Below, piece after piece: positions 9,838 to 55,004 of a stretch of DNA of 64,000 bases. The notes beneath the pieces were generated by a model. It saw only the letters and a program-made list of their open reading frames with translations, was not told the DNA's origin and ran no database searches. Within the stretch, counting starts at the first letter, position 1, and every line of letters starts with the position of its first letter. This DNA comes from a virus. The stretch lies in the IMG/VR virus record IMGVR_UViG_3300043446_003158, positions 1-64,000 of that record, one strand, 5' to 3'. The translations under genes were made by a program, and so were the position numbers.

Positions 9838-10638
9838 TTACGCTCCATCTTCATGCCAACATTCATTATATCCATTTTTTTGATCATCATATGGGTAAGA
9901 ATTTAGTTCTTTCTTTGGCCAAACTAAATCAATACCAGTTCTTGGAAAAGATTTAAATATTTTTTTACTTAAACTTTGACTAAGTTCATATGCCTCTTGC
10001 CATTTGGGAGCATAATCATAAAGATATTCGTTAGGATAAAGTAAAAATAATTTAATCCTGTCATCATAGTTAGAACAATAGTGTGCTCCAATATAAGTTT
10101 CTGTTCTCGTATAATGACCATAATACTTCCACAAATCATACTTGCTTATTCTCACTTTGTCAATAAGTCCATTTAATTCTAATGGAATATCAAACATTTT
10201 TAATAAGTGTTCTGTTTTTCCCCAGAAAACATGATCTCTGGGATGAAATAAAAGATGTGGATACATTCCAGGAACAAAAATTCTATCTTCATTCCTATTT
10301 TCAATAAAGAACTGATACATATTCAACATACTTTGATAAGTATATTTCTGATCGGTTCTCATTTTAATTGCATATTCAGTTGTAACTTTCTGCAATCCAG
10401 AAAAAGAAGTTACGATCTGAAGATTTCTATTATCTGTTCCAGGAGTAATTGGAAATTTATTTGAAACAACAAAAAATCTTGAAGTGGGATGATAATTGAC
10501 AATATCATCATCCCAACAAGAAAGAATAATGTTGTTTACGAAAGGTAGTTCAAAGTATGAATCTATAACCTCATTAGTAAATTCATCATATCTTCCTTGC
10601 AGAACAATATCAATTTTTTCAAAGTTATTATTCTGCAT
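9838..10638 (-). CDS. WavE-like lipopolysaccharide synthesis protein
   Basis: DIVLQG, IILSCW, NRNLQIVTSFSGL, YAIKMRTDQ, FHPRDHVFWG. Confidence 0.7.
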   Translation of the reverse strand: MQNNNFEKIDIVLQGRYDEFTNEVIDSYFELPFVNNIILSCWDDDIVNYHPTSRFFVVSNKFPITPGTDNRNLQIVTSFSGLQKVTTEYAIKMRTDQKYTYQSMLNMYQFFIENRNEDRIFVPGMYPHLLFHPRDHVFWGKTEHLLKMFDIPLELNGLIDKVRISKYDLWKYYGHYTRTETYIGAHYCSNYDDRIKLFLLYPNEYLYDYAPKWQEAYELSQSLSKKIFKSFPRTGIDLVWPKKELNSYPYDDQKNGYNECWHEDGA

Positions 10639-13600
10639 CAGATCTTTTTTTCAAGATGAATGTCATAGTGCTTTAAATTTTCAACAATAATATCATAATA
10701 ATCTTCACCAACATTATCATCTTCAGATAAAGATACAAAAATATTTTTGGATTCTTCTACTTTACCCCAATACCATCCAGACAAAGCCTTTTCAAATAAA
10801 AGACCATACTTACCTGGATACTCAACATCAGAAGTTGTTGATGGGTCAAACAATTCACAAATACTTAGTCCTAATGAAGCATACTTGTAGCAGTCATTCC
10901 ATTGATGTCTTCTTTCATGAAATCTAGCAAGTAAGAAATATGCCTCAGGTCTATTTGGAAGAGTGCAGAGAGCTTGTTGAAGTAAAGATATTGCAGTTCC
11001 ATCTCTAGTTCCTTGCTTATCATAACAATGGTGGCATTTGATTAAAGATTCATAGATCATATTCTCATCTTCGTATCTTTCAGATGCTCTCAAAAAATAA
11101 GATAATGCAGGAGCCGTGTGTCCCTCTTTTTCATACCAAAGACCCAAATCATAATTTCTTTGGGGATTTTCTGGATCTAACGAATATTCAGTTAGTAACA
11201 CTTCAAGATCAGTTTTATTCCTAGAAATAGAAATTTCATCATTAGATTCAACTAAATCTAAAATTTTTGATTGATAATTTTTTTTCCACCACCCAATAAC
11301 ATGTTCATATGTTTCTACATGATAATCTTTATTTTCTTTTTCAAGTTCAGAATGACCATAAAAAGTAGATTTAAGATTTTGGTCTTCAACAAAAAGATTT
11401 ACAGAATAAACTTTCCCCAAGTTATAAAATAAAAGATTTTCAGGCATTGGATAAAAATCTGTTCCTGGAATTTCTAATTTATAACAATCTCCTTCGATAT
11501 AAGTTTCAATTATTTTTCTTGCATAATCTCTAGTTAAAATATATGCAGTAACAGACCAATCCATCATTGATCTATTTCTTATTTTTACTTCTTGTTGATT
11601 TTCATTTATACAACAAAGTTGAACACACTCAGCATCTTCTGGTAAATTTTCTATAAAATCATTCCAAGTAAAGTTCCAATATTCAACTGTTTCAAGGCTC
11701 AAATCATCTTCGCAGAAAAATGCATAATCATCTTCAGTTTCTTCATACCATTTTTTAATTGCCTTTAAATGAGATATGCAACACCCAGTTGTTCCAGAGT
11801 CAAGAATATGAAGTTGTTTACCATAAACTACATCGTCACATTCATGAAATCTTTTAGAAATAATCCCATGAAGGTTTGTAACTCCAAGATCTAAAAATTG
11901 TTTGTGTAATTTTTCCCTTCTATCTACACTTTCCTCTAGACTAATGTAATAAACACTAGGAAAATCTACAAATTTAATTTTATTTGGAATAATTTTATCA
12001 GAAGTTAATTTAAAGCCCATTTCTTTCCACCAATTAAGAATTGTATTGTGAGAATTATAATGATGATCATTCAAATCATTAGTAACATTTTCTATTTCAT
12101 AAGAAGATTTAAATGAAACATCTTCAACAAAAAGAGGATAAACATATACTCTATTAGTTAAACCTAAAATAATAGTTTCTACTACTGGAATAACTGCCCA
12201 ATCTGGACGAGTATCTACATCATAACACTTACAGTCTAAATGAAAATAATCATCGTAATAGTATGTATCTATCAATTTTTGTGCATATTCTCTAGTAATT
12301 AAATATGCACAACAAGACCAATCACATGGCCATCTTTTTCTAAACTCAAAAGGATTTAAGTAGTCGGTATAATATTCTCTTAGTAAACAAAGTTGAATAC
12401 AATCCCACTTAGGAGGAAGAATATCCATAAATTCTTCCCAGGTAAAATTCCAGTATTCAACTGTTTGAAGACTTAAATCATCTTCACAGAAGAATGCATA
12501 TTCATCATTTGTACTGTTTAACCATTGTTTAATTGCTTTAAGGTGTGAAGTAACTGGTCCTCTACTACCTTGGCTTAATTTCCATTGACCAACTGCATTT
12601 AAATAATCACTAAGAATTACGTGCTCATCATCATTATATCTTTTGAATATGTGTGAGGTTATATTAGTTACTCCATACTTTTTAAATTTTTCATATAATT
12701 TTTTTCTTCTAAAAGTAGAATTTTCTATGCTAACGTAATGAACTGGTGGAAAATTTTTTAATTTGTTAAAATCATTATCAGTCTCTTCTTTTATACTGGC
12801 AATATAAAACCTATCTTTTTGTTCATCAATTACCCATTCTGTATTTGATTTATTATAATAATCAACTATGTTTTCCAATTTTTGAGAGTTAATTCTATTA
12901 TGTTCCATTGTAAGAACATAATCAGTTTGCCACTCCAATTCATCTCCAAAATATACATTGCTTAAATTAATACGAATAGTCTCTCTAAGATCTTTATCAG
13001 TTTCGGAAGATTTAAAATTTTCAACTCGTTTTGTATCTGGATGAGGTATATGGAACACATGATAATCAAAATCCATTTTCTTGTGCTCCAACCCCACCAT
13101 TTCTAATCTTTTATAGATTTCATCATCTTCAAAAGAATAATATTCACAAAAATCTTCATTATATCCACCAACTTTTAAAAAATTTTCTTTTGATACAAAT
13201 AAAAGACCAGTTAAAAATCTATAATAAGAACTATAAGAATTATAGTAATCAGTTAATTGATCTAAAGACATCTTATTGCGGTCTACAATATAATTACCAG
13301 TTCTTTCATCATAAAATTCATTATTTACAATAGAACTTTTTCCGCTTACAAATGATTGACTATCTATTTTGTACTTATCAAAAAAAGAATAATAACAATT
13401 AAATACATAATCACAATCAACTTTTAGAATATAATCTCCTTTTGCCACAGAAACCGCAAGATTAAGCGGTTGTGGTTGATTAAAATATTTTTGATTCTGA
13501 ACTCTAATAATTTTAATTCTTTCATCTAAAGAAATTAAATGCTCTAAACTTTCATCGGAACTCCAATCAACGATTATTATTTCAGTAATTTCTTTATGAT

Positions 13601-13673
13601 TTAACCAAGAATTTAAAGAAACATTTAAAGCTGAATTGCGATTTTTGCAAGCACAAATTAAAGAAATAGACAT
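10638..13673 (-). CDS. Multidomain glycosyltransferase: GT-A (GT2/GT7-like) + two GT25-like domains + TPR
   Basis: IIIVDWSS, LKVDCD, GGYNEDF..EDDE; twice SHLKAIK..YAFFCEDD; C-terminal TPR-like LQQALCTLPNRPEAYFLLARF. Confidence 0.75.
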   Translation of the reverse strand: MSISLICACKNRNSALNVSLNSWLNHKEITEIIIVDWSSDESLEHLISLDERIKIIRVQNQKYFNQPQPLNLAVSVAKGDYILKVDCDYVFNCYYSFFDKYKIDSQSFVSGKSSIVNNEFYDERTGNYIVDRNKMSLDQLTDYYNSYSSYYRFLTGLLFVSKENFLKVGGYNEDFCEYYSFEDDEIYKRLEMVGLEHKKMDFDYHVFHIPHPDTKRVENFKSSETDKDLRETIRINLSNVYFGDELEWQTDYVLTMEHNRINSQKLENIVDYYNKSNTEWVIDEQKDRFYIASIKEETDNDFNKLKNFPPVHYVSIENSTFRRKKLYEKFKKYGVTNITSHIFKRYNDDEHVILSDYLNAVGQWKLSQGSRGPVTSHLKAIKQWLNSTNDEYAFFCEDDLSLQTVEYWNFTWEEFMDILPPKWDCIQLCLLREYYTDYLNPFEFRKRWPCDWSCCAYLITREYAQKLIDTYYYDDYFHLDCKCYDVDTRPDWAVIPVVETIILGLTNRVYVYPLFVEDVSFKSSYEIENVTNDLNDHHYNSHNTILNWWKEMGFKLTSDKIIPNKIKFVDFPSVYYISLEESVDRREKLHKQFLDLGVTNLHGIISKRFHECDDVVYGKQLHILDSGTTGCCISHLKAIKKWYEETEDDYAFFCEDDLSLETVEYWNFTWNDFIENLPEDAECVQLCCINENQQEVKIRNRSMMDWSVTAYILTRDYARKIIETYIEGDCYKLEIPGTDFYPMPENLLFYNLGKVYSVNLFVEDQNLKSTFYGHSELEKENKDYHVETYEHVIGWWKKNYQSKILDLVESNDEISISRNKTDLEVLLTEYSLDPENPQRNYDLGLWYEKEGHTAPALSYFLRASERYEDENMIYESLIKCHHCYDKQGTRDGTAISLLQQALCTLPNRPEAYFLLARFHERRHQWNDCYKYASLGLSICELFDPSTTSDVEYPGKYGLLFEKALSGWYWGKVEESKNIFVSLSEDDNVGEDYYDIIVENLKHYDIHLEKKI

Positions 13674-13678
13674 ATAAA

Positions 13679-14149
13679 TCAGTTACTTGATATAAACTTT
13701 TTATAAAAAATTGCTTTGTCGGTGCATACACCGAATCCTTTTTTTAAATTTTCTAGATGATCATAATAATTTATTGATTCTGGAAGAACAATGATTCCTT
13801 TTGAGTATGGAAATTGCCCTATCAAAATCCAACCAAATCCTTTACTGGTGATAGTATACCTATCAGTTTCATGCCAAAAATAGTTAAATTCTACCATAGA
13901 TGTAGATAATTTTTCCAGTGCTTCTCTATTTTTACAGTGAATCCATAAAACATCTTTGTGTTTTACCAACCAATTAATAGGAACATGATATTGTGGTTTA
14001 TCATGTCCAAGATAACACTCATTATTTTCAACTCTTAAATCAATCTCAACATCAAATCCTTCAGCAATTGCTTCTTCAATATAATCAACACTATTTTCCT
14101 TGATTGGATTTGGACCAGTCAAATTTCCACGATGAGAAATAATTTTCAT
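13679..14149 (-). CDS. GDPD/PLC-like phosphodiesterase-fold protein
   Basis: True start MKIISHRGNL at 14149, 1 nt after the RLP stop; GFDVEIDL, YLGHD, WIHCKN, FWHETD. Confidence 0.7.
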   Translation of the reverse strand: MKIISHRGNLTGPNPIKENSVDYIEEAIAEGFDVEIDLRVENNECYLGHDKPQYHVPINWLVKHKDVLWIHCKNREALEKLSTSMVEFNYFWHETDRYTITSKGFGWILIGQFPYSKGIIVLPESINYYDHLENLKKGFGVCTDKAIFYKKFISSN

Positions 14150-14150
14150 A

Positions 14151-15389
14151 TCAAAAATCCAACACCCACTCAGGAAGAGAACCTCCACCAGTTTCATATC
14201 CCCACTTATCAATAGCAGCACGAAACTCTGGTCCAGGAGTTTTATCAATTGCCTGACGCATTGCCAGAGCACCTGCCAGAGTACCCCCAGGATGCCCGTG
14301 AACAGCGCCGCCACAGTTAGCAAGGAAGTCTGTTCCAAACTTCTCTGCAGTGGTGTTAACGATCCCTGGATGCATACCACAACTCAATGCTGGAAGAACA
14401 TTTCTATTGTAAAGTGTCGTTAAAGTCTTACGAAGTTCTGTCTCATCATCACTGAGATATCCACCCCACATTCCAGCATGAATGGTATCCACTCCACAAA
14501 GACCAGCAAGATCACAGAGAACATCCCAATCAATACCAAATGCATGTCTCTTATCAGTAAGGATTTTATCTCCACTCTTTTGGTAATGAATAAACATTGG
14601 AAGGTCCATTCTTCTAATTGAATTATAAACACCAAGACCAGACCAGAAATTAATGTGGATACCATTACCACCATTATTTGCAACAAAATTTGCACGTTCA
14701 AGAATGGTGTGATGATCTCCATTAATACAGAAGCAGTAAATTACTCCTCTTCCACATTCATTTACAATGTTTGAAATAAGTTCTACACGATCTTCAAGAC
14801 GGCAGAATGCAGGATTGGAAAGAATTTCATCTTCCTTAATAAAATCAACACCACCATCAAGAAGTTCTTTAACCATATCGGCAAGAGTTTGTGGTGTAAT
14901 GCCTGTTTTAGGTTTTACGATTGCACCAGAAAGTGGTTTATCAAACCTGTTAACGAACCTACGAATACCTTCAATTCCATATTTTGGTCCAAGAAATTGT
15001 GCTTCTACATCAGCAGGAAACTCCAGTTTCTGAAGGCGACAAACTTTAAATACATCAATATCAAGTTGTCCACCCATTACCTGACAGAGAAGATGTGAGA
15101 TACCATCACCTTCCCAATCAGTATTGACTTTGGGGAATCCAATCTTCACTTGCCCAGAGTGAACCCCAGTAAGGTTTTCTTCCGTATCATAGATGACACA
15201 AGATGCTAACTCAAAAAGTTCATCACTCTCCCAGCGATTACGAACCTTTGGATTTCCCACACTCTGCCCAATGGCAAGATTCCAAGCAGCATCTCTCAAA
15301 TCACCAACTTGATGATTTGCTTCAATATAATACGTTGCTACTACACAACGATCTCTTTCTTGTTCTGTTAGTTCTCTAAAAAATTTCAT
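14151..15389 (-). CDS. RuBisCO-like protein (form IV, RLP)
   Basis: GPKYGIEGIR, GAIVKPKTG (K175/K177), GVDFIKEDE (K201/D203/E204), DTIHAG, PALSCG, CGGAVHGHPGG. E60, N123, R295 and K334 equivalents appear substituted. Confidence 0.9.
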   Translation of the reverse strand: MKFFRELTEQERDRCVVATYYIEANHQVGDLRDAAWNLAIGQSVGNPKVRNRWESDELFELASCVIYDTEENLTGVHSGQVKIGFPKVNTDWEGDGISHLLCQVMGGQLDIDVFKVCRLQKLEFPADVEAQFLGPKYGIEGIRRFVNRFDKPLSGAIVKPKTGITPQTLADMVKELLDGGVDFIKEDEILSNPAFCRLEDRVELISNIVNECGRGVIYCFCINGDHHTILERANFVANNGGNGIHINFWSGLGVYNSIRRMDLPMFIHYQKSGDKILTDKRHAFGIDWDVLCDLAGLCGVDTIHAGMWGGYLSDDETELRKTLTTLYNRNVLPALSCGMHPGIVNTTAEKFGTDFLANCGGAVHGHPGGTLAGALAMRQAIDKTPGPEFRAAIDKWGYETGGGSLPEWVLDF

Positions 15390-16060
15390 GCTTCAACCTC
15401 ATTTCTTACTAAGACTAATATCTCATCACCATCAAATCCATATTGTTGATTAGAATTACAAGTTTTTACTTGAGTTATATTACTATAATACTTATCATGC
15501 CCATAAAGTTTAATTTCATCAGCATAACTGTAAATTCTATAAACAATATCTTCAATTATAAGACATCCTCCAGGATTTAAATACTTATAAGCATTTCTAA
15601 TTACTTTAATTTGATCCCAAAACTTATGGCTAGAATCATCTATAATAACATCAAATTTAGTATTAGATTTTTCAAAAGAATTATTAATTGACTCTTCGGA
15701 TTTGACATTCATATAATCATAAAACACATTATGTAAATTTTCAGTTTTGGCATTTTGTATAAAATCCTCTTGATATCTATCTTCAGAAGATTCTCCTACT
15801 TTACAATCCCACCCATAAAGAGTTGCATTTGAAAAGTATTCTCTCCACATTCTCATAGATGCGTTTTTATATATTCCAATCTCACCAAAAACAATATTCT
15901 TATGTCTAATATTAGAAAATAAAAAATTATAAAACGGAGTGTATGCGTGATGCCCCATAGAACGCGCCAGAGGAGATTTATCAGTTCCATACTTTTCACC
16001 AATAAAACACAAATCTGTAGGAGATGAAAAACTATTATACAATATTTGATTAAACTTCAC
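15386..16060 (-). CDS. SAM-dependent (sugar O-)methyltransferase-like protein
   Basis: KYGTDK, HAYTPFY, EIGIYKNASMRMWREYF, FDVIIDDSSH, GGCLIIED; resembles macrolide-sugar O-methyltransferases. Confidence 0.75.
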   Translation of the reverse strand: MKFNQILYNSFSSPTDLCFIGEKYGTDKSPLARSMGHHAYTPFYNFLFSNIRHKNIVFGEIGIYKNASMRMWREYFSNATLYGWDCKVGESSEDRYQEDFIQNAKTENLHNVFYDYMNVKSEESINNSFEKSNTKFDVIIDDSSHKFWDQIKVIRNAYKYLNPGGCLIIEDIVYRIYSYADEIKLYGHDKYYSNITQVKTCNSNQQYGFDGDEILVLVRNEVEA

Positions 16061-16062
16061 TT

Positions 16063-16383
16063 TTAAACCTCAAACTTATCTGATGGAATAGAAGGAACTT
16101 TAACGACAACTAATGTACAATCTTCAAGAAAAACTGGATCTGCAACTTCTCCTTTTTCAAAAATAAATACATCTCCACTATTTAATTCTTTTCCTTGAAT
16201 GGTCATTTTTCCAGAAACAAGAACATTATATTCTACACTTTCTTTATGGTAGTGCGGTGCCCAATACTCTCCCTTTTTATGCGTAAGTAACCCAACTTCA
16301 AATTGGTCTGTTTTCAATACTGAAGGTTTAAAGTTTCCTATAAACCAACCTCTCACATAATCAGTAATTTTTGATGTGTTCAT
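16063..16383 (-). CDS. Cupin-fold protein
   Basis: GWFIGNF, HYHKESVEYNVLVSG, GDVFIFEKGE. Confidence 0.8.
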   Translation of the reverse strand: MNTSKITDYVRGWFIGNFKPSVLKTDQFEVGLLTHKKGEYWAPHYHKESVEYNVLVSGKMTIQGKELNSGDVFIFEKGEVADPVFLEDCTLVVVKVPSIPSDKFEV

Positions 16384-17092
16384 ACTTTTCTAAAAAAGAA
16401 TTCAAATCTTCTGGAACTCCAACTGGATTATGTTGATAATTTGGAATATGATGTATTCCAACTTTAAGTCCTTTCTTAATCATATGATTATAAGATGGGC
16501 CAACATAAAACTCACCATTAGGTGCTCTATCATTACATTGTATCATATCTTCTGCACTTTGTACAAAATATTTCCCCTTTCTCCAATAATGAATTCCATT
16601 TAAGGATATATCACTTATAACTTCTTTTTCTTTTATTTCCTGAACAAATCCTTTACGATCAATTCTAGCGTAACTATTTTTTGGTGTAGATGTGGTATAA
16701 GTCACAATCAACCCATCATACTTATAATATCTTGCAGATGTTAAAAATAAATCAGAATCCCACCACATAATCTGATCACAGTTAGCAATTATTAATTCAT
16801 CCTCATTATTAATAAAATCTTTAAACAAAAGACAACTGGAAGCAGGTCCTTCTGTAGTTTCTTCTACGCTAATAATTTTTGAAGTTGGAAGTATGGAATG
16901 TAATAATGTACATACTTGATCATAATAACTATCTTTTCTTATGATAAAATGATAGGTTCCCGTTAATCCAAGAGAATGAACTGCTCTTTGAATCATTGCA
17001 ATTCCATCAATTTCAATTAATGGTTTTGGAATTTTATAGGTATCTCTAGGAAATCTAGTCCCTTCACCTGCCATTGGAATTATTATATTCAT
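16361..17092 (-). CDS. Sugar-phosphate nucleotidyltransferase
   Basis: IIIPMAGEGTRF...KPLIEI, EGPA, IANCDQ, EKEVIS, NGEFYV. Confidence 0.85.
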   Translation of the reverse strand: MNIIIPMAGEGTRFPRDTYKIPKPLIEIDGIAMIQRAVHSLGLTGTYHFIIRKDSYYDQVCTLLHSILPTSKIISVEETTEGPASSCLLFKDFINNEDELIIANCDQIMWWDSDLFLTSARYYKYDGLIVTYTTSTPKNSYARIDRKGFVQEIKEKEVISDISLNGIHYWRKGKYFVQSAEDMIQCNDRAPNGEFYVGPSYNHMIKKGLKVGIHHIPNYQHNPVGVPEDLNSFLEKYEHIKNY

Positions 17093-17098: not shown

Positions 17099-17968
17099 TT
17101 ATTCAAACATTACCTTAACTATTTTTTTAGTTGTTAAATTATTTTTAGTATAATCAAAAAGATATTCATTTAATTCATCATAACAAGGATGAATTTCGTA
17201 TCTTCTGGCATATTTATTGGTTTCTTTAATAATATCTTTTGGAAAATTTACCATTGTTAAAGGAGGACAATCTTCAATATCTGGAAAATAAGGAATGCAT
17301 TTGTTTGCCAATATTTCATAATGCCTCATACAATTCCATTGAGATTTTTTCCAAGTCATACCATAATAAGAACTTGCATAATCATTATAGTAATCATTTT
17401 CATTATCGTAAATATAAGTTTCAAATTTTCCTGGAATAATGTAAGCAAATATTTTTTCTTTAGTTGGAGTATAATTAATTAATTGTGATTCTGGAATTCC
17501 AAAAGTAATTGGATTTGCAGCTCCAGGATCTATCAAATGAGTTTTCCAAATAGTTCCATAGGAATTTAGACCATGAGCATGTGCAAAATTCCAAGTATTA
17601 TCTGAACCATCAATTAAATGAATTTTATCTTTTGAATAATATTGTTTTACATATTCAAAATAATCTAAACATTGTCTTTTATTAAATCCTTCATGAGTAT
17701 AGATGCATCCATAAATTATAGCATCATAAAATCTTGATTTAATTTTTTCAATTATTGTTTCTGGAGAATCTAGTTTTGGAGTATGTTCTAACTTACCAAA
17801 TATTGTAAAACCTTTTCCATAAATGTGAGATCTTTCTGTAAAAGATTTTAACATATAAGAAGGATAATGAGTTTCATATACTTCTATACCATTATCAATC
17901 AAACCATGATAAATTGTATCTGATTGATAATCTGGATACTCAAAATTATAGACAAATAAAACCTTCAT
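17099..17968 (-). CDS. Putative glycosyltransferase-like protein
   Basis: LIDGSD, YYNDYASSYYG, WNCMRHYEILANKCIPYF (GT-B-like C-terminus); start MKVLF overlaps the upstream stop. Confidence 0.5.
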   Translation of the reverse strand: MKVLFVYNFEYPDYQSDTIYHGLIDNGIEVYETHYPSYMLKSFTERSHIYGKGFTIFGKLEHTPKLDSPETIIEKIKSRFYDAIIYGCIYTHEGFNKRQCLDYFEYVKQYYSKDKIHLIDGSDNTWNFAHAHGLNSYGTIWKTHLIDPGAANPITFGIPESQLINYTPTKEKIFAYIIPGKFETYIYDNENDYYNDYASSYYGMTWKKSQWNCMRHYEILANKCIPYFPDIEDCPPLTMVNFPKDIIKETNKYARRYEIHPCYDELNEYLFDYTKNNLTTKKIVKVMFE

Positions 17969-18612
17969 ATACGCTTTCTTGCAAAAGCAATTCCCCAATC
18001 TTTAGGGCAACAATTTTGCGTGATTTCCCATTTAGTTTTATCTAAAGCATTAACAAATTCTTTAGGTCCAGGATGACATGATACATCATGAAATCCAACA
18101 ACACCACTATCAGATAATAAATTTGTATATTCCCAATCTCTTAAAACTTGATTAATACTATGCCACCCATCAATAAAAATAAAATCAAATTTTACATCAT
18201 CAGTTCCTAATACCATTTTAAAAATATCAAGATTTTCATCATAAAATGAACTATCATTTTGAATAGTGTGAATATTATTTTCAGCGTTTCTTAAGAATGA
18301 TCTATCAGCAATATCTAGACCAACATAAACAGTATCCTTTTTTTTATTTTTTGTTAAAACATGAACAAAAGAATCTTCTGCATTCCTACCTACACCTATT
18401 TCCAAAATTGCTTTTGCAGTATCACGAACTTTTAAGAAATTTTCAAGTAAATAATACCTATTACAAATAGTAACTTCTTCAGGATAAATCATGTTACCTT
18501 CAAAATCACATTTATGCCCATATCTATATGGATGAGAATCTGCTACACCATCAACATCATCATATGCAGTGAATGTTCTAATATCTTTTGTTAAATCGTT
18601 TTCCCATTTCAT
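17965..18612 (-). CDS. Class I SAM methyltransferase (Methyltransf_24-like)
   Basis: ILEIGVG, FIFIDGWHS, GVVGFHD; paralogue of the C-terminal domain of 20704..23916. Confidence 0.8.
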   Translation of the reverse strand: MKWENDLTKDIRTFTAYDDVDGVADSHPYRYGHKCDFEGNMIYPEEVTICNRYYLLENFLKVRDTAKAILEIGVGRNAEDSFVHVLTKNKKKDTVYVGLDIADRSFLRNAENNIHTIQNDSSFYDENLDIFKMVLGTDDVKFDFIFIDGWHSINQVLRDWEYTNLLSDSGVVGFHDVSCHPGPKEFVNALDKTKWEITQNCCPKDWGIAFARKRI

Positions 18613-18638: not shown

Positions 18639-18646
18639 TATTTATT
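18639..18646 (-). promoter_or_regulatory. T4-like late promoter (AATAAATA)
   Basis: Intergenic NATAAATA 27 nt upstream of the ATG at 18612. Confidence 0.55.
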
Positions 18647-20388: not shown

Positions 20389-20440
20389 AATTATTTCGTT
20401 CTTAATTTTATTATACAATAGATTTTAATTATTTTCAAAT

Positions 20441-20686
20441 TTATTCAATAGTCGTCATAGTTTCTGAAATTAATGGTTGATTTTCTACGATAGATTCTGG
20501 TCTTCTATAAATTTTTACAGTTGCTTCAACTGGATAATCCCAACCATATTCATCTTTAAGATCAACAATTTCTTGAATAGACAAACTTACTTCTGCATAT
20601 TGTTCATGTGCTAATTGATATAGATGAGCAAGAGGCATACTTGAAGTAACTTCATGATCAAACATACTAGGATCTCTTGGGTCCAT
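20441..20686 (-). CDS. Hypothetical protein
   Basis: 81-aa ORF with AAGG SD, in operon. Confidence 0.5.
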   Translation of the reverse strand: MDPRDPSMFDHEVTSSMPLAHLYQLAHEQYAEVSLSIQEIVDLKDEYGWDYPVEATVKIYRRPESIVENQPLISETMTTIE

Positions 20687-43618: not shown

Positions 43619-43626
43619 TATTTATC
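43619..43626 (-). promoter_or_regulatory. T4-like late promoter (GATAAATA)
   Basis: NATAAATA 23 nt upstream of the giant-protein ATG. Confidence 0.6.
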
Positions 43627-45656: not shown

Positions 45657-48600
45657 TTATTTACTATCTATTTTTAAGTTAAGTTCTTTAATTGCTTCAA
45701 TCAATAAAGCAACCAAATTAGAATATGCAACTGATTTAACTTCATAATTTTCTGTTTTTTTCTTAGGGTACACTACATCAGGAACAATCTTTTCAATTTC
45801 TTGAGCTATAAGTCCTATTTGATGATCTCCACTATCTGTGCGATCAAATTCGACTCCACGTAACATTAGAACTTTATCTAAAGCATTTTCTATAGTTTTA
45901 ACATTTATTTTTAATATTTCATCGGAATTTGCCGTTAATGTTCCACCAGCAACAAGATTTCCTGTCGATGGATTAAATGTAAGTTTTGTTGATGATACAT
46001 AAGCAGTTTGTGCAGCTCCAGCAGTAACAGAAAGAATACCGACATACCAATTTGAATTTGTAGTTGTATCATCATATATTGTTACAGATCCGCTAGCATT
46101 TATGTTTGATAATTTAGATCCATCACCATAATAAGAAGTTGCACTAACAATTCCCAAAGAACCATAGAATGTAATTGCAGAACCAACTTGCATTACTTGA
46201 GTTGTTTTATCAAATGTTAAATTTGCAGATGCTCCAGCAGAATTATTATCATTAAATATAATTTGCTTATCAGATCCAGCAACAGGTCCTATTGTTCCCT
46301 GCAAACCTTGAAGTCCTTGTGTTCCCTGAACACCTTGAAGTCCTTGGGTTCCCTGAATTCCTTGAAGTCCTTGAGTTCCTTGAACACCCTGATCACCCTG
46401 GAGTCCTTGGGTTCCCTGAACTCCCTGCAATCCTTGTATTCCCTGATCACCCTGGAGTCCTTGTGTTCCTTGAACTCCCTGATCACCCTGGAGTCCTTGG
46501 GTTCCCTGAACACCTTGAAGTCCTTGAACTCCCTGTAAACCTTGTGTTCCCTGAACTCCCTGCAATCCTTGTGTTCCTTGAACTCCTTGGACACCTTGAA
46601 GTCCTTGAGTGCCTTGAACACCTTGGAGTCCTTGTGTTCCTTGAACTCCCTGATCACCCTGGAGTCCTTGTGTTCCTTGAACTCCCTGTAAACCTTGAGT
46701 ACCTTGAACACCTTGAAGTCCTTGGGTTCCTTGTGTTCCTTGAACTCCCTGTAAACCTTGAGTACCTTGAACACCTTGAAGTCCTTGGGTTCCTTGTGTT
46801 CCTTGAACTCCCTGTAAACCTTGAGTACCTTGAACACCTTGAAGTCCTTGGGTTCCTTGAACACCTTGATCACCTTGAAGTCCTTGGATTCCTTGAACTC
46901 CCTGCAATCCTTGAGTTCCTTGAGTTCCTTGAGTTCCTTGTGTTCCTTGTAAACCTTGGGTTCCTTGAACTCCTTGGACACCTTGAAGTCCTTGAGTGCC
47001 TTGAACACCTTGGAGTCCTTGTGTTCCTTGAACTCCCTGATCACCCTGGAGTCCTTGAGTGCCTTGAGTCCCCTGCAAACCTTGAGTTCCCTGAACTCCT
47101 TGAAGTCCTTGAGTACCTTGAGTACCTTGATCACCTTGAAGTCCTTGAAGTCCTTGAAGTCCTTGAGTACCTTGAACTCCCTGCAATCCTTGAGTTCCTT
47201 GAGTTCCTTGAACACCTTGGAGTCCTTGAGTACCTTGAACTCCCTGCAATCCTTGAGTTCCTTGAGTTCCTTGGAGTCCTTGAGTACCTTGAACTCCTTG
47301 TAAACCTTGAAGTCCTTGTGTTCCCTGAACACCTTGAAGTCCTTGTGTTCCTTGAACTCCCTGTAAACCTTGAGTACCTTGAAATCCATCAACACCTATA
47401 ACACCATCTTGCCCACGAAGACCTTGTAATCCTTGTAACCCAGCAGCATAAGGAGTAGTCCAAGAAACTCCAGCGCCAGTAGAAATAAGAACTGATCCAG
47501 CAGCGCCTACATTATTATAAATGTCCTTTAATGTAGAATTCAGTTCAATAGGACCTTCAAAAAGGAAGTTTCCAGTACCATCAATTTGTGCTCTTACTGC
47601 AGCAGAACTAGCATCAACAAAACGAAGACTTGGTGTTGATGTATTGCCATAAACATCAATATACCAAGAAGTAGCATTATCAGTTGCTCTACCAAAACTT
47701 AACTGACCACCTTCACTACCCGTATCAACTCTACCTGCTTTGATTTCTCCACCATTAAAGTTAAGAGATGTATCACTAACTTGCATTCCACCAGCAGCAA
47801 GCCTTACACCATTAGGAATTGTTAAAGTTCCAATACCAAGAGCATAGTTAAATGCCCAAGCATCAGTGTTCAATCCAGTGAAAGTACCAGACTTGAACCA
47901 CATTAATTGCTTATAAGTATCTGGAGTTATTTCTCCACCAGAATTAAAATTAACTAATGGACTACCTTCAGTGGATGCAATCGCAATACCACCAGTGTTT
48001 GCAGTGGTATCTGTAGAAACATCATTACCAAATGCATCTGTTATTACACCAACTACAATATCCTTATCTTTGATTCTAAGTTCATTAGATACAATATATG
48101 ATGATGTACCTCCGATAGTAATATTACCACCAACATAAAGATTAGATCCATCAAAAGTTAAATTACCAGAACCAGTAGGATTGTTGGAGCCATCTTTATA
48201 AACAATTTGATTGGCAGATCCTGCTACAGGTCCAGTTTGTCCTTGAACTCCCTGTAAACCTTGTGTTCCTTGAACTCCCTGCAATCCTTGTGTTCCCTGA
48301 ACACCTTGAACTCCTTGTAAACCTTGAGTACCTTGAACACCTTGAAGTCCTTGAGTACCTTGAGTACCTTGTAAACCTTGGGTTCCTTGAACTCCTTGTA
48401 GTCCTTGGATGCCCTGAACACCCTGAACACCTTGAAGTCCTTGTGCTCCTTGTGTTCCTTGTAAACCTTGGGTTCCTTGAACTCCTTGAAGTCCTTGAGT
48501 ACCTTGAACTCCTTGAAGTCCTTGGGTGCCTTGAACACCCTGAACACCTTGAAGTCCTTGTGCTCCTTGTGTTCCTTGTAAACCTTGGGTTCCTTGTACT

Positions 48601-51600
48601 CCTTGATCTCCTTGAAGTCCTTGAGTGCCTTGAGTCCCCTGCAAACCTTGAGTTCCCTGAACTCCTTGAAGTCCTTGAGTACCTTGAGTACCTTGATCAC
48701 CTTGAAGTCCTTGAGTACCTTGAACTCCTTGTAAACCTTGAGTACCTTGAACACCTTGAAGTCCTTGGGTTCCTTGAACACCTTGATCACCTTGAAGTCC
48801 TTGAGTACCTTGAACTCCCTGCAATCCTTGAGTTCCTTGAGTTCCTTGTGTTCCTTGTAAACCTTGGGTTCCTTGAGTCCCTTGCCCACCTGAACCTTGA
48901 GTCCCCTGCAAACCTTGAGTTCCTTGTACTCCTTGATCTCCTTGAAGTCCTTGAGTGCCTTGAGTCCCCTGCAAACCTTGAGTTCCCTGAACTCCTTGAA
49001 GTCCTTGAGTACCTTGAGTACCTTGATCACCTTGAAGTCCTTGAGTACCTTGAACTCCCTGCAATCCTTGAGTACCTTGTGTTCCTTGTAAACCTTGGGT
49101 TCCTTGAGTCCCTTGCCCACCTGAACCTTGAATTCCTTGTAAACCTTGAGTTCCTTGTACTCCTTGATCTCCTTGAAGACCTTGAAGACCTTGAACACCC
49201 TGATTACTTAAACCTTGAAGACCTTGAACACCCTGATCACCTTGAAGCCCTTGAGTTCCCTGAACTCCTTGATTACCGGATCCTTGAACTCCCTGTAAAC
49301 CTTGATCACCTTGGAGTCCTTGTGTTCCTTGAGGTCCTTGCGATCCAACACCTTGAAGTCCTTGCAGTCCTTGGGTTCCTTGAACTCCCTGTAATCCTTG
49401 AGTACCCTGAACTCCTTGATTACTTAAACCTTGAATTCCCTGATCACCTTGCAATCCTTGGATTCCCTGATCACCCTGAAGTCCTTGTGTTCCTTGAACA
49501 CCCTGAACACCTTGATTACTTAATCCTTGAACACCTTGGATTCCTTGATCACCTTGAAGTCCTTGAGTACCTTGAACTCCTTGATTACTTAATCCCTGAA
49601 CACCTTGAATTCCTTGATCACCTTGAAGTCCTTGAGTTCCCTGAACACCTTGATTACTTAAACCTTGAATACCTTGTAGTCCTTGTGTACCTTGAAGACC
49701 TTGAATTCCCTGTCTTCCCTGCAACCCTTGAGTTCCTTGGAATCCCTGAACACCTTGTAAACCTTGAGTACCTTGATTTCCTTGAGGTCCTTGATCTCCA
49801 ACATCTCCAGTTCTAGCAAACGTGATAATAACATCATCATTATCACTAAAATAAGTACTACTACCAACAATAAAATTACAGTTTACATCCCAATATCCAG
49901 TTTGCAGTTCAGCTCCTGGTCCTCCACCTTGACCAGTTATTGAATTTATTGTAAATAAAGCAAATACAGAAGAATCAAATTTTTTAGAGATTCTAAAATG
50001 TCCCTTTATTACAGAACTAGAATCATTAATAGTTGTTAAAAATGATTGTATATCAGTTGAATTATCATCAAGATTATCAATATACATTGAATCTGATAAT
50101 TTATAATCACTATTATTAAACTTTAATCTACCAGTTCCAGGGTCAGAATTATCATAATCAGACTCAAAAGTATAATCAAAACTAGCTCCACCAAAATTAC
50201 CATCTCTACCTCTTGGTCCTTGAGTTCCTTGAAGTCCTTGTGTTGCTTGAGTTCCTTGAGTTCCTTGAGTTCCAGAACCTTGAATTCCCTGGAATCCTTG
50301 CAATCCTTGTGTCCCCTGTGTTCCTTGAATTCCTTGATTACTTAATCCTTGAACACCTTGGATTCCTTGATCACCTTGAAGTCCTTGAGTACCTTGAACT
50401 CCTTGATTACTTAATCCCTGAACACCTTGAATTCCTTGATCACCCTGAAGTCCTTGAATACCTTGAGTTCCTTGAGTACCTTGGTCACCTTGCAATCCTT
50501 GAATTCCTTGAATTCCTTGATCACCTTGCAATCCTTGAATTCCCTGAATTCCTTGATCACCTTGCAATCCTTGGATTCCTTGATTACCTTGCAATCCTTG
50601 GATTCCTTGGTCACCCTGAAGTCCTTGAGTTCCTTGTCTTCCTTGAATACCTTGATTACCCTGAGATCCTGTATTTCCTACACTTCCACGAAATCCTTGA
50701 GTACCCTGAAGTCCTTGAGAACCTTGATTACTTAATCCTTGAATACCTTGAATTCCTTGATCACCCTGGAGTCCTTGTGTTCCTTGATCACCCTGAAGTC
50801 CTTGGGTTCCTTGAGTTCCTTGAACTCCCTGTAAACCTTGAGTTCCTTGGTCACCTTGAAGTCCTTGAGTACCTTGAACTCCTTGAGTACCCTGAAGTCC
50901 TTGAGAACCTTGATTGCCAGAACCTTGAACACCTTGAGTTCCTTGATCACCTTGAAGTCCTTGAGTTCCTTGTGTTCCTTGAACACCTTGATTACCAGAT
51001 CCCTGAACACCTTGAGTGCCTTGAACTCCTTGTAAACCTTGAGTTCCTTGAACTCCCTGTAATCCTTGAGTACCTTGAACACCTTGAAGTCCTTGGGTTC
51101 CTTGAACACCTTGAAGTCCTTGCGTTCCCTGAACTCCTTGATTACCAGATCCTTGAACACCTTGAGTTCCTTGGCCACCTTGAAGTCCTTGTGTTCCTTG
51201 AACTCCCTGCAATCCTTGAGTTCCTTGATCACCTTGAAGTCCTTGAGTTCCCTGTAATCCTTGAGTACCTTGAACTCCTTGAAATCCTTGTATTCCTTGA
51301 ACACCTTGATCACCCTGAAGTCCTTGAGTACCCTGAACTCCTTGATTACTTAAACCCTGCAATCCTTGAGTGCCTTGAGGTCCTCTAACAGTTCCAACAT
51401 CATTCCAAATAGATCCATCAAAAACCCATAAATTTCCAGTATCCGAAGCAATAACACCATCACCAGTTCCTGGAGGATACCATGAATAGATAGTGTCATT
51501 ATTTGTTAATGTTGTAGATCCAACAGAAGTAGTTTTTGATGGTACTGATCCAACAATAGTAACTGAAGTTCCAGCATCACCTTTATCACCTTTTTGCCCC

Positions 51601-54600
51601 AAAACACCTTGAGTTCCCTGTAAACCTTGAGTTCCTTGAATTCCCTGATTACTTAAACCTTGGACACCTTGGATTCCTTGGTCACCTTGTAATCCTTGGA
51701 TACCTTGAGTTCCCTGTAACCCTTGAGTTCCTTGAACTCCCTGATCACCCTGAAGTCCTTGAGTACCTTGAACTCCTTGATTACTTAAACCTTGAACACC
51801 TTGAGTTCCTTGAACTCCCTGTAAACCTTGAGTTCCTTGGTCACCTTGAAGTCCTTGAATTCCTTGAGTACCTTGATTACCAGATCCTTGAACACCTTGA
51901 GTTCCTTGAACTCCCTGTAAACCTTGAGTTCCTTGAGTACCTTGATTACCAGATCCTTGAACACCTTGAGTTCCTTGGTCACCTTGAAGTCCTTGTGTCC
52001 CTTGAGTTCCCTGTCCACCAGAACCTTGAATTCCCTGTAAACCTTGAGTTCCTTGAACCCCCTGATCACCTTGCAATCCTTGAATTCCCTGAGTTCCCTG
52101 TCCACCAAAACCTTGAATTCCCTGTAAACCTTGAGTTCCTTGAACTCCTTGCAAACCTTGAGTACCTTGGGTTCCTTGGTCACCCTGAAGTCCTTGAGTA
52201 CCTTGAACTCCTTGATCACCTTGAAGTCCTTGAATTCCCTGATCACCCTGAAGTCCTTGTGTTCCTTGAGTTCCTTGAACACCTTGAAGTCCTTGAGTAC
52301 CTTGAACTCCTTGATCACCTTGAAGTCCTTGAGTACCTTGAACTCCTTGATCACCTTGAAGTCCTTGTGTTCCTTGATCACCTTGAAGTCCTTGAGTACC
52401 TTGAACTCCTTGATCACCTTGAAGTCCTTGAACTCCCTGTAAACCTTGTGTTCCCTGAACTCCCTGTAAACCTTGAGTACCTTGAACTCCTTGATCACCT
52501 TGAAGTCCTTGTGTTCCCTGAGTGCCTTGAGCACCAGAAGTTCCAGTGGCAGAAAATGTTATTGATTTTGGAGCAGAAGCTTTAGTTGTAATTGCAATTC
52601 CAGGACCAGCAATAAACTCAACAGTATCTTCACCAACAGCTTCTAATGTATCTTGACCAGCAACGTTCCAAGTTTTAAAGCTACTACCCAACTCAACAAA
52701 TACTTCACCACCACCAAGACTTGTAACCGCAAATCCAGTAGTTTTGTCAAATCTTATAGCACTTACATTAGATACAACATCACTATTGTTACTACCAGAA
52801 TATCCATTTCTAGTGCTAACAGTTAAAGCTGGTGCAGATGTTCCTTGAATACCCTGAAATCCTTGCAATCCAACACCTTGAACTCCCTGCAATCCTTGAG
52901 TTCCCTGTACTCCTTGATCCCCCTGAAGTCCTTGAGTACCTTGAACTCCCTGCAATCCTTGAGTTCCTTGAATTCCCTGATCACCCTGAAGTCCTTGTGT
53001 TCCTTGAGTTCCTTGAGTTCCTTGAACACCTTGAAGTCCTTGAGTACCTTGAACTCCTTGATCACCTTGAAGTCCTTGTGTTCCTTGATCACCTTGAAGT
53101 CCTTGTGTTCCTTGAACTCCCTGCAATCCTTGAGTTCCTTGAACTCCTTGGTCACCTTGAAGTCCTTGAGTACCTTGAACTCCTTGAAGTCCTTGTGTTC
53201 CTTGTAAACCTTGAAGTCCTTGTGTTCCTTGAACACCTTGATTACTTAAACCTTGAATTCCCTGAACTCCTTGATCACCCTGGAGTCCTTGAGTTCCTTG
53301 AACTCCCTGCAATCCTTGAGTTCCTTGTGTTCCTTGTAAACCTTGGGTTCCTTGAGTTCCTTGAACTCCTTGATTTCCTTGGAGTCCTTGAGTACCTTGA
53401 ACACCTTGATTACCCTGAAGTCCTTGAGTACCTTGTAATCCTTGGGTTCCTTGTAATCCTTGTGTTCCTTGAACTCCTTGATCACCCTGAAGTCCTTGAG
53501 TACCTTGAGTTCCTTGAATTCCTTGTAATCCCTGAGTTCCTTGAACTCCTTGATTTCCTTGGAGTCCTTGAGTACCTTGAACTCCTTGATCCCCCTGAAG
53601 TCCTTGAATACCTTGAACTCCTTGATTACTTAAACCTTGTAATCCTTGAGTACCTTGCGGACCTCTAATATTTCCAACATCATTCCAAACTGGTGTTGTT
53701 GAATCATATACCCACAAATTTCCAGTATCTGAAGCAATAACACCATCACCAGTTGAAGCAGGATACCAAGAATAAACAGTATCATTATTAGTTAAAGTAG
53801 ATGATCCAATAGAAGTAGTTTTTGAAGGTACTGATCCAATAATTTTAACGGATGTTCCTGTGTCACCTTTATCACCTTTTTGCCCTAAAATTCCTTGTAT
53901 TCCTTGAAGTCCTTGAACTCCTTGATTACTTAAACCTTGAACACCTTGAATTCCTTGATTACCCTGAAGTCCTTGTGTTCCTTGAGTTCCTTGAACACCT
54001 TGAAGTCCTTGAGTACCTTGAACACCTTGAATTCCTTGATCACCCTGAAGTCCTTGAGTACCTTGAGTTCCTTGATTACCCTGTGTTCCTTGAACTCCTT
54101 GATCACCCTGAAGTCCTTGAGTTCCTTGTGTTCCTTGAGTACTTTGAGTTCCTTGTAAACCTTGAATCCCTTGAATACCTTGTTCACCTTGAAGACCTTG
54201 GATTCCTTGATTACCCTGAAGTCCTTGAGTTCCTTGATTACCCTGAAGTCCTTGAGTTCCTTGATTACCCTGAAGTCCTTGAGTTCCCTGAACTCCTTGA
54301 TTACCGGATCCTTGAACTCCCTGTAAACCTTGAGTACCTTGAGTACCTTGAGTTCCCTGTATTCCTTGATCACCTTGAAGTCCTTGTGTTCCTTGAACAC
54401 CTTGATTACTTAAACCTTGAATTCCCTGAACTCCTTGATCACCCTGGAGTCCTTGAGTTCCTTGAACTCCCTGCAATCCTTGAGTTCCTTGTGTTCCTTG
54501 TAAACCTTGGGTTCCTTGAGTTCCTTGCCCACCACTAAATCCTTGAACACCTTGAACACCTTGCTCACCTTGGAGTCCTTGTGTTCCTTGATTTCCTTGA

Positions 54601-54950
54601 GTTCCTTGAGTTCCTTGAGTTCCTTGCCCACCACTAAATCCTTGAACACCTTGCTCACCTTGGAGTCCTTGTGTTCCTTGAACGCCTTGACCTGCAAATT
54701 CACCAGATAATCCTTGAATACCTTGTTCACCTTGAAGACCTTGGATTCCTTGGTCACCTTTACCAACAAATCCTCCAGATAAACCTTGAGTTCCCTGTTC
54801 ACCAATAGATCCATCAGATCCTTTTTGTCCCTGCAATCCTTGAGTGCCTTGAGCACCAGAACTACTGGCAACTATTTTTACAGCATTTTCTTGGCCGACC
54901 CTAACGGTTGGTTGATTTCCAGAATTTACACGAACCCGTATGTCTGCCAT
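45657..54950 (-). CDS. Collagen-like tail fibre (3097 aa) with C-terminal intramolecular chaperone (peptidase S74-like)
   Basis: Long (G-X-Q)n tracts separated by globular domains; C-terminus [39 protein letters not shown]. Confidence 0.85.
46289..54854. repeat. Coding 9-bp-period repeat blocks (Gly-X-Gln collagen triplets), six blocks, approximate limits
   Basis: Plus strand (g/a)ttccttga / gtccttga / caccttga iterations. Confidence 0.9.
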
Positions 54951-54996
54951 TAGATGATTTCTCTCGCTGATAAATCAAAAAATTCTCTGTTATGTA

Positions 54997-55004
54997 TATT
55001 TATT
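54997..55004 (-). promoter_or_regulatory. T4-like late promoter (AATAAATA) for the fibre operon
   Basis: NATAAATA about 47 nt upstream of the collagen-fibre ATG. Confidence 0.6.

Follow-up and report, generated by a model that had tools for sequence, protein, structure and literature searches.

The locus described here lies at positions 9,838 to 55,004 of a 64,000-nucleotide (nt) stretch of viral DNA (the window), which is the first 64 kb of the 177,187 bp IMG/VR-type virus record IMGVR_UViG_3300043446_003158 (~90% complete by CheckV estimate). It comprises four tail-fibre genes followed on the same strand by an island of glycosylation genes. The region is a hypervariable host-recognition region of a T4-like cyanomyovirus and has three layers: the fibre cluster, a six-gene block of glycosyltransferase (GT) and methyltransferase (MT) genes that is inherited with one type of fibre (module A), and a cassette built around a RuBisCO-like protein (RLP; module B). 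The locus is flanked on one side by gp32, gp59, a gp33-type late coactivator, phoH and thyX, and on the other by psbA, talC, zwf and gnd. Because of these core and auxiliary genes, and DNA matches of 75–81% to Synechococcus phages and myoviruses, the source is assigned by its gene content to an uncultured T4-like cyanomyovirus (Kyanoviridae). All genes across 9.2–62.5 kb are carried on the minus strand. Close IMG/VR relatives of the window come from many metagenome samples, a large part of which we read as freshwater from the sample numbers only.

Related loci (n = 111) were collected with two queries, 80 with the RLP, whose relatives occur on 226 viral contigs, and 31 with the 1070-amino acid (aa) GT of module A, and all window proteins were mapped onto these loci for synteny. 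Module genes are named by their left coordinate: module A consists of genes 29705, 28971, 28264, 26853, 24644 and 20704, and module B of genes 19396 through 9838. Over the 111 loci the flanks are constant and modules A and B are gained, lost or moved, which is the behaviour of a plastic fibre/GT region.

Genes of the fibre cluster

The fibre cluster contains, in order of transcription:

45657–54950, minus strand: collagen-like trimeric tail fibre, 3097 aa (Pfam Collagen, E 2e-292; C-terminal Peptidase_S74, E 6e-11)
44591–45652, minus strand: Gly-rich minor tail protein, 353 aa (Gly_rich_2; phrog_754 minor tail protein, E 3e-13)
43625–44587, minus strand: Gly-rich minor tail protein, 320 aa (Gly_rich_2, E 4e-9; phrog_356 and phrog_754)
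30454–43596, minus strand: giant fibre, 4380 aa, with a Gly-rich domain at each end and at least 68 Asp-box-like beta-propeller blades between them

The C-terminal S74 intramolecular chaperone of the collagen-like protein is a hallmark of a trimeric fibre or spike. Its collagen region has 723 G-X-Y triplets, mostly GTQ, GLQ and GVQ. Gln occupies Y in 90% of them, and X is Thr (28%, or 204 residues), Leu (27%) or Val (19%); the triple helix contains five Lys, all at Y.

The blades of the giant fibre follow the motif S-[ST]-D-x-[IVLG]-x-W with a period of ~43 aa and a super-period of ~231 aa. An AlphaFold2 model of residues 3560–4030 is all-beta (predicted local distance difference test, pLDDT, 75.8) and matches the beta-propellers of GH74, Ycf48 and WD40 proteins in Foldseek, and metagenomic homologs of the giant fibre join the propeller with Gly_rich_2, collagen and phage tail-collar domains. 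The extreme Ser/Thr content attributed to this protein in the initial annotation is borne out by composition (30% Ser+Thr, over the entire length); its source is the folded propeller blades, where the Ser and Thr residues sit, and a mucin-like, disordered acceptor region was ruled out. A related-locus search with the C-terminal 499 aa of the giant protein gave 20 pattern matches and no confirmed one.

Gene content of the glycan island

The four fibre genes had been described as leading straight into ~21 kb of same-strand glycosylation genes, and this description holds: the island (9838–30421) measures 20.6 kb and lies entirely on the minus strand. Its ~19 proteins include about nine GT domains, six MT domains and a sugar-nucleotide cassette, as follows:

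29705–30421, minus strand: module A gene 1, GT-A glycosyltransferase, 238 aa (phrog_1574, E 3e-73; invariant DSD form of the DXD motif, D92-S93-D94)
28971–29705, minus strand: module A gene 2, paralog of gene 1 (29% identity), 244 aa (phrog_1574, E 1e-46)
28264–28974, minus strand: module A gene 3, DUF8361 protein, 236 aa (protein atlas score 0.98 to viral DUF8361 clusters)
26853–28298, minus strand: module A gene 4, 481 aa, DUF8361-like N-terminal half and Methyltransf_24 (E 1e-18)
24644–26851, minus strand: module A gene 5, 735 aa, Methyltransf_23 (E 3e-10) and C-terminal GT-B-like domain (weak Glyco_trans_1_2, E 0.0085)
23913–24647, minus strand: GT2 glycosyltransferase, 244 aa (Glycos_transf_2, E 1e-10)
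20704–23916, minus strand: module A gene 6, 1070 aa, GT17-like domain (E 4e-24), two Methyltransf_24 domains (E 5e-28) and Glyco_trans_1_4 (E 1e-5)
20441–20686, minus strand: small acidic open reading frame (ORF) of 81 aa at the module A/B border, read from the sequence and filling most of an apparent 285-bp gap
19396–20388, minus strand: module B gene 1, 330 aa, true ATG at 20388
18650–19399, minus strand: DUF7796-like protein, 249 aa (weak Pfam DUF7796, E 3e-5; phrog_13607)
17965–18612, minus strand: Methyltransf_24 methyltransferase, 215 aa (Pfam)
17099–17998, minus strand: 299-aa protein, no family match in Pfam, NCBIfam or PHROG
16361–17092, minus strand: sugar-1-phosphate nucleotidylyltransferase of the core RLP cassette, 243 aa (NTP_transferase, E 1e-7)
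16063–16383, minus strand: small cupin of the core RLP cassette, 106 aa (weak Cupin_7 and Cupin_2)
15386–16060, minus strand: class I methyltransferase, 224 aa (Methyltransf_31 and Methyltransf_24)
14151–15389, minus strand: RLP, form IV-like, 412 aa (RuBisCO_large, E 3e-43)
13679–14149, minus strand: ~156-aa protein downstream of the RLP (phrog_34507; PHROG)
10638–13673, minus strand: multi-domain GT, 1011 aa, with a GT2/GT7C GT-A domain, a GT25 domain and a C-terminal TPR-like region
9838–10638, minus strand: WavE-family glycosyltransferase, 266 aa, last island gene (WavE, E 5e-12)
9218–9832, minus strand, abutting the island: 2-oxoglutarate (2OG)-Fe(II) oxygenase, 204 aa (2OG-FeII_Oxy_5, E 4e-15)

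The Pfam families represented are GT2, GT17, GT1, GT7C, GT25, WavE, methyltransferases, NTP_transferase, cupin and RuBisCO_large. Counted as domains, the GTs are the two phrog_1574 GT-A paralogs, GT2, the GT17-like domain, two GT-B-like domains, GT2/GT7C, GT25 and WavE; the MT domains are mostly Methyltransf_24, of the sugar-O-MT type. The TPR matches of the 1011-aa GT are weak (E 5e-4), and its score of 0.87 to TPR-carrying viral clusters in the protein atlas is a lead only. The matches of the nucleotidylyltransferase to RmlA/GlmU-type NCBIfam models all fall under cut-off. Gene 20704 was found in 31 related viral loci and gene 19396 in 28; the latter has no match in Pfam, NCBIfam or PHROG, and in loci L081–L090 its homologs are preceded by coding sequence resembling the 81-aa ORF. 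Neither the GT2 gene 23913, which is specific to the window, nor the oxygenase 9218, which is not conserved with the island, has any homolog in the 111 related loci, and both appear from this distribution to be recent additions particular to the source phage. DUF8361 occurs twice, as the stand-alone protein 28264 and as the N-terminal half of the 26853 protein, with 43% identity between the two in relatives. The island gave no megablast match, and the RLP no tblastn match, to GenBank phages, so no close homolog was found in GenBank phage records.

All island enzymes are predicted to be soluble. None of the island proteins contains a segment with a Kyte-Doolittle value of 1.6 or more (the psbA control was positive), the island Pfam matches include no initiating phosphoglycosyltransferase, flippase, ABC transporter, polymerase or ligase, and GtrA, GtrB, GtrC and membrane acyltransferases are absent from the island by Pfam and hydrophobicity. 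The initial annotation had taken the lack of signal peptides on the GTs as favouring cytoplasmic substrates. This observation does not discriminate between acceptors, because the GTs of lipopolysaccharide (LPS) and O-antigen synthesis are cytoplasmic too.

The enzymes could instead be directed at the host envelope, acting at the cytoplasmic membrane face on lipid-linked O-antigen, LPS-core or exopolysaccharide intermediates that would be exported by host machinery, with superinfection exclusion, prevention of progeny re-adsorption to debris or grazer evasion as the purpose. Such remodelling is a serious alternative, to which we nevertheless assign distinctly less than an even chance. It is the standard reading of comparable clusters in P-SSM2 (PMC1079782), in the hypervariable regions of cyano- and pelagimyophages (PMC7029224) and in S-SCSM2R (PMC12801897); the vicinity of phoH is a known hotspot for LPS clusters (PMC3037559), and the island ends ~5 kb from phoH. 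WavE and GT25 bear LPS-type family names, and the combination of GTs and nucleotide-sugar genes (GT2, GT17, GT1, GT25, WavE, NTP_transferase, cupin) is that of O-antigen, LPS and capsule clusters. As in seroconversion modules (GtrABC, Oac) and O-antigen clusters, the GTs present would be able to alter a surface glycan, with possible superinfection exclusion. Those systems, however, need membrane proteins (GtrA/B/C, Wzx/Wzy, an ABC transporter, WaaL), and the island encodes no Gtr-type protein, Wzx/Wzy, ABC transporter, ligase or initiating transferase. Moreover, ~9 GT and 6 MT domains are far above the content of known phage seroconversion modules, and a lytic T4-like phage has scant time in which to rebuild an envelope glycan.

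A third possible substrate is phage DNA, with the GTs glycosylating modified bases as a protection against restriction. Glycan hypermodification of DNA by phage GTs is on record (Pyle 2024, as cited in PMC12619734), S-TIM5 is annotated with a DNA alpha-GT, and the window has a Mom-family gene. This explanation was rejected as the main one since PF00303, the thymidylate-synthase/dCMP-hydroxymethylase family, is absent from the ~90% complete genome and was found in control genomes; further, the island GT families are not of the T4 alpha/beta-GT type, and the many sugar O-methyltransferases and multi-domain GTs indicate a complex glycan. DNA hypermodification is accordingly regarded as very improbable. 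The Mom-family gene (DNA adenine modification) lies at the window edge (1–555); according to a 2025 paper, mom had not been identified in cyanophages prior to S-SCSM2R.

Linkage of module A to the propeller fibre

In every one of the 20 related loci with upstream DNA, module A lies directly downstream of a propeller-fibre homolog, across a conserved short gap. On its other side the relatives have either module B genes or, directly, the DUF6433/phoH/gp33/gp59/gp32 block. Among 32 long contigs (60–518 kb), nine carry both the propeller repeat and the module A marker 28264, 23 carry neither and none is discordant; the check for fibres lacking module A covered only contigs already collected, many of which are fragments. 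The concordance is perfect in these 32 contigs and speaks against envelope remodelling. That alternative answers it by supposing that receptor-binding proteins and receptor-modifying enzymes both track one host glycan.

Module A proteins are 77–91% identical between the window and its relatives, which is comparable to the core genes phoH and thyX. The fibres adjoining the module are just 35–45% identical, range from ~900 to 4380 aa, and are encoded by one to four genes. Because the enzymes are this well conserved beside such divergent fibres, they are taken to be under purifying selection and not to be stuffer DNA. The notion that the island is horizontally acquired, non-functional cargo was raised for cyanophage LPS clusters by Sullivan et al. 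2010 (PMC3037559), and the region is indeed highly variable between relatives. Here, all frames are intact, the conservation of module A and of the RLP (82–91% identity) is like that of core genes, the DXD motif of 29705 is invariant and the RLP retains its metal-site residues, and we find the cargo explanation scarcely credible.

The coupled fibre glycosylation system of the initial annotation is supported for module A, the first third of the island, by this linkage, the solubility of the enzymes and the GT fold described below, and is not supported for the island as a single unit. Independence of the island from the fibres in relatives, which had been named as an observation that would tell against the coupling, was found for module B, which is two-thirds of the island (L005/L109, G001–G004, G003 and G017), and not for module A.

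Fold and family of the fibre-adjacent glycosyltransferase

The first gene of module A, 29705, was modelled with AlphaFold2 (pLDDT 87.9) and the model compared with known structures by VIA-align. The best fold matches were STIV A197 (Z 18.1) and residues 293–521 of human LH3 (Z 17.8), followed by yeast Mnn9 (Z 16.3), mimivirus R699 (Z 16.0) and COLGALT1 (Z 15.0); generic GT-A folds scored Z 13.2 or less. The function of R699 is that of a collagen glucosyltransferase (PMC9546862, PMC12279948). Sequence identity of 29705 to the viral fold matches is just 12–20%, and the model is best regarded as a fold-level lead toward protein-acting viral GTs, with the acceptor not proven. The nearness of this first GT to protein- and virus-associated GT-A folds is a further point at odds with an envelope substrate.

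An ortholog of the 29705 type (~50% identity) is present in 105 cultured cyanophage records, its carriers including freshwater DSL-LC03 and marine S-SCSM2R, ACG-2014f and S-TIM5, and the source genome has its own at 169,407–170,168, outside the window. Because of this wide occurrence and the separate copy in the source genome, the two fibre-side genes, 29705 and 28971, are by sequence extra paralogs of a widespread cyanophage GT. The ortholog stands last in an array of tiny early genes, with gp25, gp6 and a giant gp7-like baseplate gene a few genes further on. This position was not used as evidence of a structural role and may just mark the early/late boundary. In S-SCSM2R a 2OG-Fe(II) oxygenase lies two genes downstream of the ortholog.

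Promoters of the fibre cluster and the island

Promoter-like features, and the gene upstream of the collagen-like fibre, are:

55004–55375, minus strand: HNH endonuclease (Pfam HNH_5, E 2e-13), with its own ATAAATA at 55397–55403
54997–55003, minus strand: late-promoter motif TAAATAAATA, 47 nt before the collagen-like fibre start
43619–43625, minus strand: late-promoter motif GATAAATA, 23 nt before the giant gene start
18639–18645, minus strand: late-promoter motif CAATAAATA, 27 nt before the MT gene start at 18612, not conserved in relatives
20410–20438, minus strand: sigma-70-type promoter-like site TTGAAA-17-TATAAT (11/12 matches), just before the module B ATG at 20388

The late-promoter motifs previously reported at 54997, 43619 and 18639 were thus recovered, ATAAATA being present at all three. 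In the whole window ATAAATA is rarer than expected (12 found, 30.6 +/- 5.2 expected), as would be expected if stray late promoters were selected against. On the minus strand over positions 1–62549, five of eight copies fall within the 2957 intergenic bases (4.7% of the sequence), and four lie 22–47 nt before the starts of the HNH gene (55375), the collagen-like fibre gene (54950), the giant gene (43596) and the MT gene (18612). This placement before start codons is far above chance and supports these copies being real late promoters. Their presence upstream of the giant gene and within module B is not what envelope remodelling would lead one to expect.

The gap between the giant fibre gene and module A (30422–30453, minus strand) measures 32 nt, close to the 33 bp reported initially, and the reported lack of a terminator is upheld: no terminator-like hairpin was found in any intergenic space, and the few intragenic matches are no commoner than in shuffled sequence. 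In relatives (L081–L108) the spacer between the fibre stop and module A is ~46 nt and contains an extended -10 element, ATATGnTAnAAT, conserved in 11 distinct relatives. This element shares its -10 class, TGnTAGAAT, with ~10 repeated early promoters in the early-gene array of the source phage. The window spacer is shorter than that of the relatives and its extended -10 element is degenerate (CATATATAAAC). The extended -10 TGTTAGAAT at 30467–30475 was not relied on, as it lies within the codons of a conserved YVRI motif and may be a coding by-product. At the position of the 20410–20438 site before module B, relatives carry GTGCTATAAT, and L012 and L019 have a late motif, AAATAAATA, in addition. 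Sigma-70-like sites are depleted in 28.9–48.8 kb (47 against 74.6 expected).

In the window, module A transcripts are likelier to arise by read-through from the late promoter of the giant gene. Late-only co-transcription is probably not the rule in the family, because relatives keep a host-type extended -10 before module A. Host-type promoters before modules A and B in relatives, and before module B in the window, agree with envelope remodelling. An early promoter weakens the argument from late expression to a structural role and does not overturn it, because modifiers of late proteins can be made early.

Module B and the RuBisCO-like protein

The core of module B consists of the nucleotidyltransferase, the cupin, the RLP and the small phrog_34507 protein, often with the Methyltransf_24 gene as well. 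In the 80 RLP loci the RLP is accompanied by the nucleotidyltransferase in 78, the phrog_34507 protein in 72 and the cupin in 68. On contig 3300044825_002608 (L005, L109) the core lies between gnd/talC and psbA, and module A is still behind the fibre ~25 kb away. In G003, a complete phage of 172 kb, the cassette lies beside DNA polymerase B and has GT2, MT24, MT23 and DUF7796 genes on its flanks. In G017, a complete phage of 123 kb, its flanking genes are two of the GT61 family and one resembling APS-kinase/cytidylyltransferase, and a halogenase and DenV lie close by. The long contigs G001–G004 carry the RLP cassette without the propeller fibre, two of the four being 100% complete by CheckV estimate. 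Judged by these placements, module B is mobile between genome positions and phage lineages.

Alignment of the RLP to PDB 2cwx shows that it retains K175, K177, the carbamylated K201 and the metal ligands D203 and E204, with the changes N123G, H294Q, R295K, H298D, K334Y (loop 6) and S379C. Because N123, H294, R295, H298 and K334 are lost, the protein is not expected to be a carboxylase. With a large-subunit fold and Mg/carbamate site and without the carboxylation residues, it falls by alignment within form IV, and all NCBIfam equivalog scores are far under cut-off. It is 82–91% identical across many contigs from different samples.

Jaffe et al. 2019 (PMC6389311) described phage RLPs that are likewise divergent and form IV-like, occur on Myoviridae-type contigs from many environments and have lost carboxylase residues. 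The RLP of the source phage differs in its setting, a conserved cassette of nucleotidyltransferase, cupin, RLP and small protein with GTs and MTs on either side; glycosyl-, nucleotidyl-, cupin or methyltransferase neighbours go unmentioned in the main text by Jaffe et al., and none of the papers searched joins a phage RLP with such a context.

Possible glycosylation of the fibres

Our preferred reading, held tentatively and at a little under an even chance, is that module A glycosylates fibre or other virion proteins. Soluble GTs genetically linked to structural genes, as seen here, are one feature expected of a phage virion glycosylation system. The first layer, the fibre cluster behind its late promoters (the collagen-like fibre, two minor-tail proteins and the giant propeller fibre), would supply the acceptors. 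The second, the six soluble GT/MT genes of module A inherited as a block with the propeller fibre, would modify the phage's own fibre proteins in the cytoplasm, placing O-linked and in part O-methylated glycans on them before the tail fibres are assembled or while assembly is under way, by analogy with the soluble viral GTs that act on chlorovirus capsids, on mimivirus collagen and fibrils, and on mycobacteriophage capsid and tail-tube proteins. Both the fibre acceptor and the chemistry are inferred, and the more plausible O-glycosylation sites, if any, are the 204 Thr residues at X and the surface of the propeller. Hydroxylysine-linked collagen glycosylation was discarded as the main chemistry, there being only five triple-helix Lys in 723 triplets, and BclA- or Riftia-type G-X-Thr(glycan) collagen is a poor fit, since Thr is at X and Gln at Y in 90% of triplets. 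The GT25 domain of the 1011-aa protein belongs to what we take to be the COLGALT family in CAZy.

The third layer, module B, is read as a mobile cassette that would provide an unusual nucleotide sugar and the enzymes to transfer it, with the RLP as an enolase or isomerase, and in the source phage it may feed the same glycan. The complete scheme, a cytoplasmic O-glycosylation and O-methylation pathway on the propeller and collagen-like fibres fed by a nucleotide sugar from the RLP cassette, is rather unlikely to be correct in all its parts.

Several observations weigh against fibre glycosylation. The Ser/Thr richness of the giant fibre is structural and due to the Asp-box blades. The matched regions of LH3 (293–521) and COLGALT1 (~42–310) may, we presume, be non-catalytic GT-like domains, and the 29705-type ortholog at 169.4 kb is not linked to a fibre. 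WavE and GT25 are named for LPS-core enzymes. The nine contigs positive for module A represent ~5 lineages of one clade plus the window, and the co-occurrence may on this phylogenetic spread reflect one shared acquisition. Nor does linkage identify the acceptor, as receptor-binding fibres and receptor-masking enzymes would also be co-inherited. Across the family, to judge from its upstream sequences, module A is probably not expressed late only, and the host-type promoter before it suits early host-directed expression as well as pre-loading of the enzymes. Module B is not tied to fibres, and its independent movement is what envelope remodelling would allow. A second glycan cluster at ~70.5–83.5 kb (70506–83458; ~13 kb, ~14 genes), with two more Methyltransf_24 domains, has no large fibre gene adjacent and is not fibre-linked.

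Comparison with known systems

The initial remark that virion glycosylation is poorly documented for tailed phages is out of date, a mycobacteriophage case having been published (Freeman et al. 2023, PMC10527164, as cited in PMC12801897 and PMC12619734). As those papers present it, that system has in common with the present one a tailed phage, phage-encoded soluble GTs near structural genes and a virion-protein acceptor (proposed in our case); its glycans were demonstrated by experiment on capsid and tail-tube C-termini, and few GTs are involved. The proposal for the source phage, in contrast, comes from gene content, names fibres as the acceptors and involves a far larger set of enzymes.

Giant- and archaeal-virus glycosylation systems (R699, STIV A197) share with the locus a soluble GT-A, a collagen-like virion fibre encoded nearby and GT-MT fusions. 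Chloroviruses, too, encode GT-MT fusion enzymes. Relative to the LH3/COLGALT/R699, L230 system, the GT-A fold is related and a GT25 domain is present in the 1011-aa protein, but no lysyl-hydroxylase family gene was identified here, the neighbouring oxygenase being of the 2OG-FeII_Oxy_5 family and not conserved with the island.

The closest counterparts are the hypervariable regions in which cyano- and pelagimyophages carry GTs together with tail-fibre genes, read as serving host O-chain modification (Zaragoza-Solas et al. 2020, PMC7029224), and the 'LPS' clusters near phoH in P-SSM2, S-SM2 and S-SSM7, to which no function was assigned (Sullivan 2005, PMC1079782; Sullivan 2010, PMC3037559). Shared features are a T4-like aquatic myovirus, fibre and GT/sugar genes in one plastic region, and a large cluster by phoH. 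The island differs from these regions in splitting into a fibre-locked module and a mobile RLP module, and in its richness in sugar O-methyltransferase domains and multi-domain GT-MT fusions. In the papers on those phages modification of the host O-chain is the favoured role, and the link to one particular fibre is an addition made here. New in the present analysis are this split between modules, the absence of membrane machinery, the fold relation of 29705 and the host-type promoter before module A in relatives.

If the fibres are glycosylated, current views of cyanophage host range, adsorption, and recognition by grazers or of the immune type would need revision. The GT clusters of aquatic myoviruses have been labelled 'LPS genes' since 2005, and to our knowledge their acceptor has never been identified; a six-gene soluble module locked to one fibre type offers a concrete way to split this problem. 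The context of the RLP cassette suggests that an orphan branch of the RuBisCO superfamily has a part in sugar-nucleotide metabolism. Should both the fibre pathway and sugar supply by the RLP prove true, this would be the first cyanophage virion glycosylation system and the first role assigned to phage RLPs, which are widespread in aquatic phages.

Genes upstream of the fibre cluster

Beyond the HNH endonuclease, two further genes adjoin the fibre cluster upstream:

56482–57633, minus strand: Trp-halogenase-like protein, 383 aa, truncated-looking (Pfam Trp_halogenase, E 8e-33)
55524–56489, minus strand: putative glycosyltransferase-like protein, 321 aa (weak Pfam RXYLT1_C, E 2e-4)

A full-length halogenase (515 aa; L042, 13778–15325) lies near the RLP cassette in the unrelated complete phage G017. 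Sets of GTs, sugar O-methyltransferases and halogenases are typical of natural-product tailoring, and the island enzymes, together with the halogenase-like protein and 2OG oxygenases, might decorate a metabolite or build a soluble, methylated oligosaccharide in the cytoplasm. The two halogenase genes and the solubility of all island enzymes are consistent with this. The window, however, contains no scaffold-forming enzyme (polyketide synthase, non-ribosomal peptide synthetase or terpene synthase), halogenases and 2OG oxygenases are common stand-alone cyanophage genes, and the linkage of module A to the fibre would be left unexplained; small-molecule or soluble-glycan tailoring is, on balance, quite improbable.

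The 321-aa GT-like protein is an island-type gene situated across the fibre cluster from the island, and its homologs (36–39% identity) lie inside the glycan island in L009, L090, L110 and L111.

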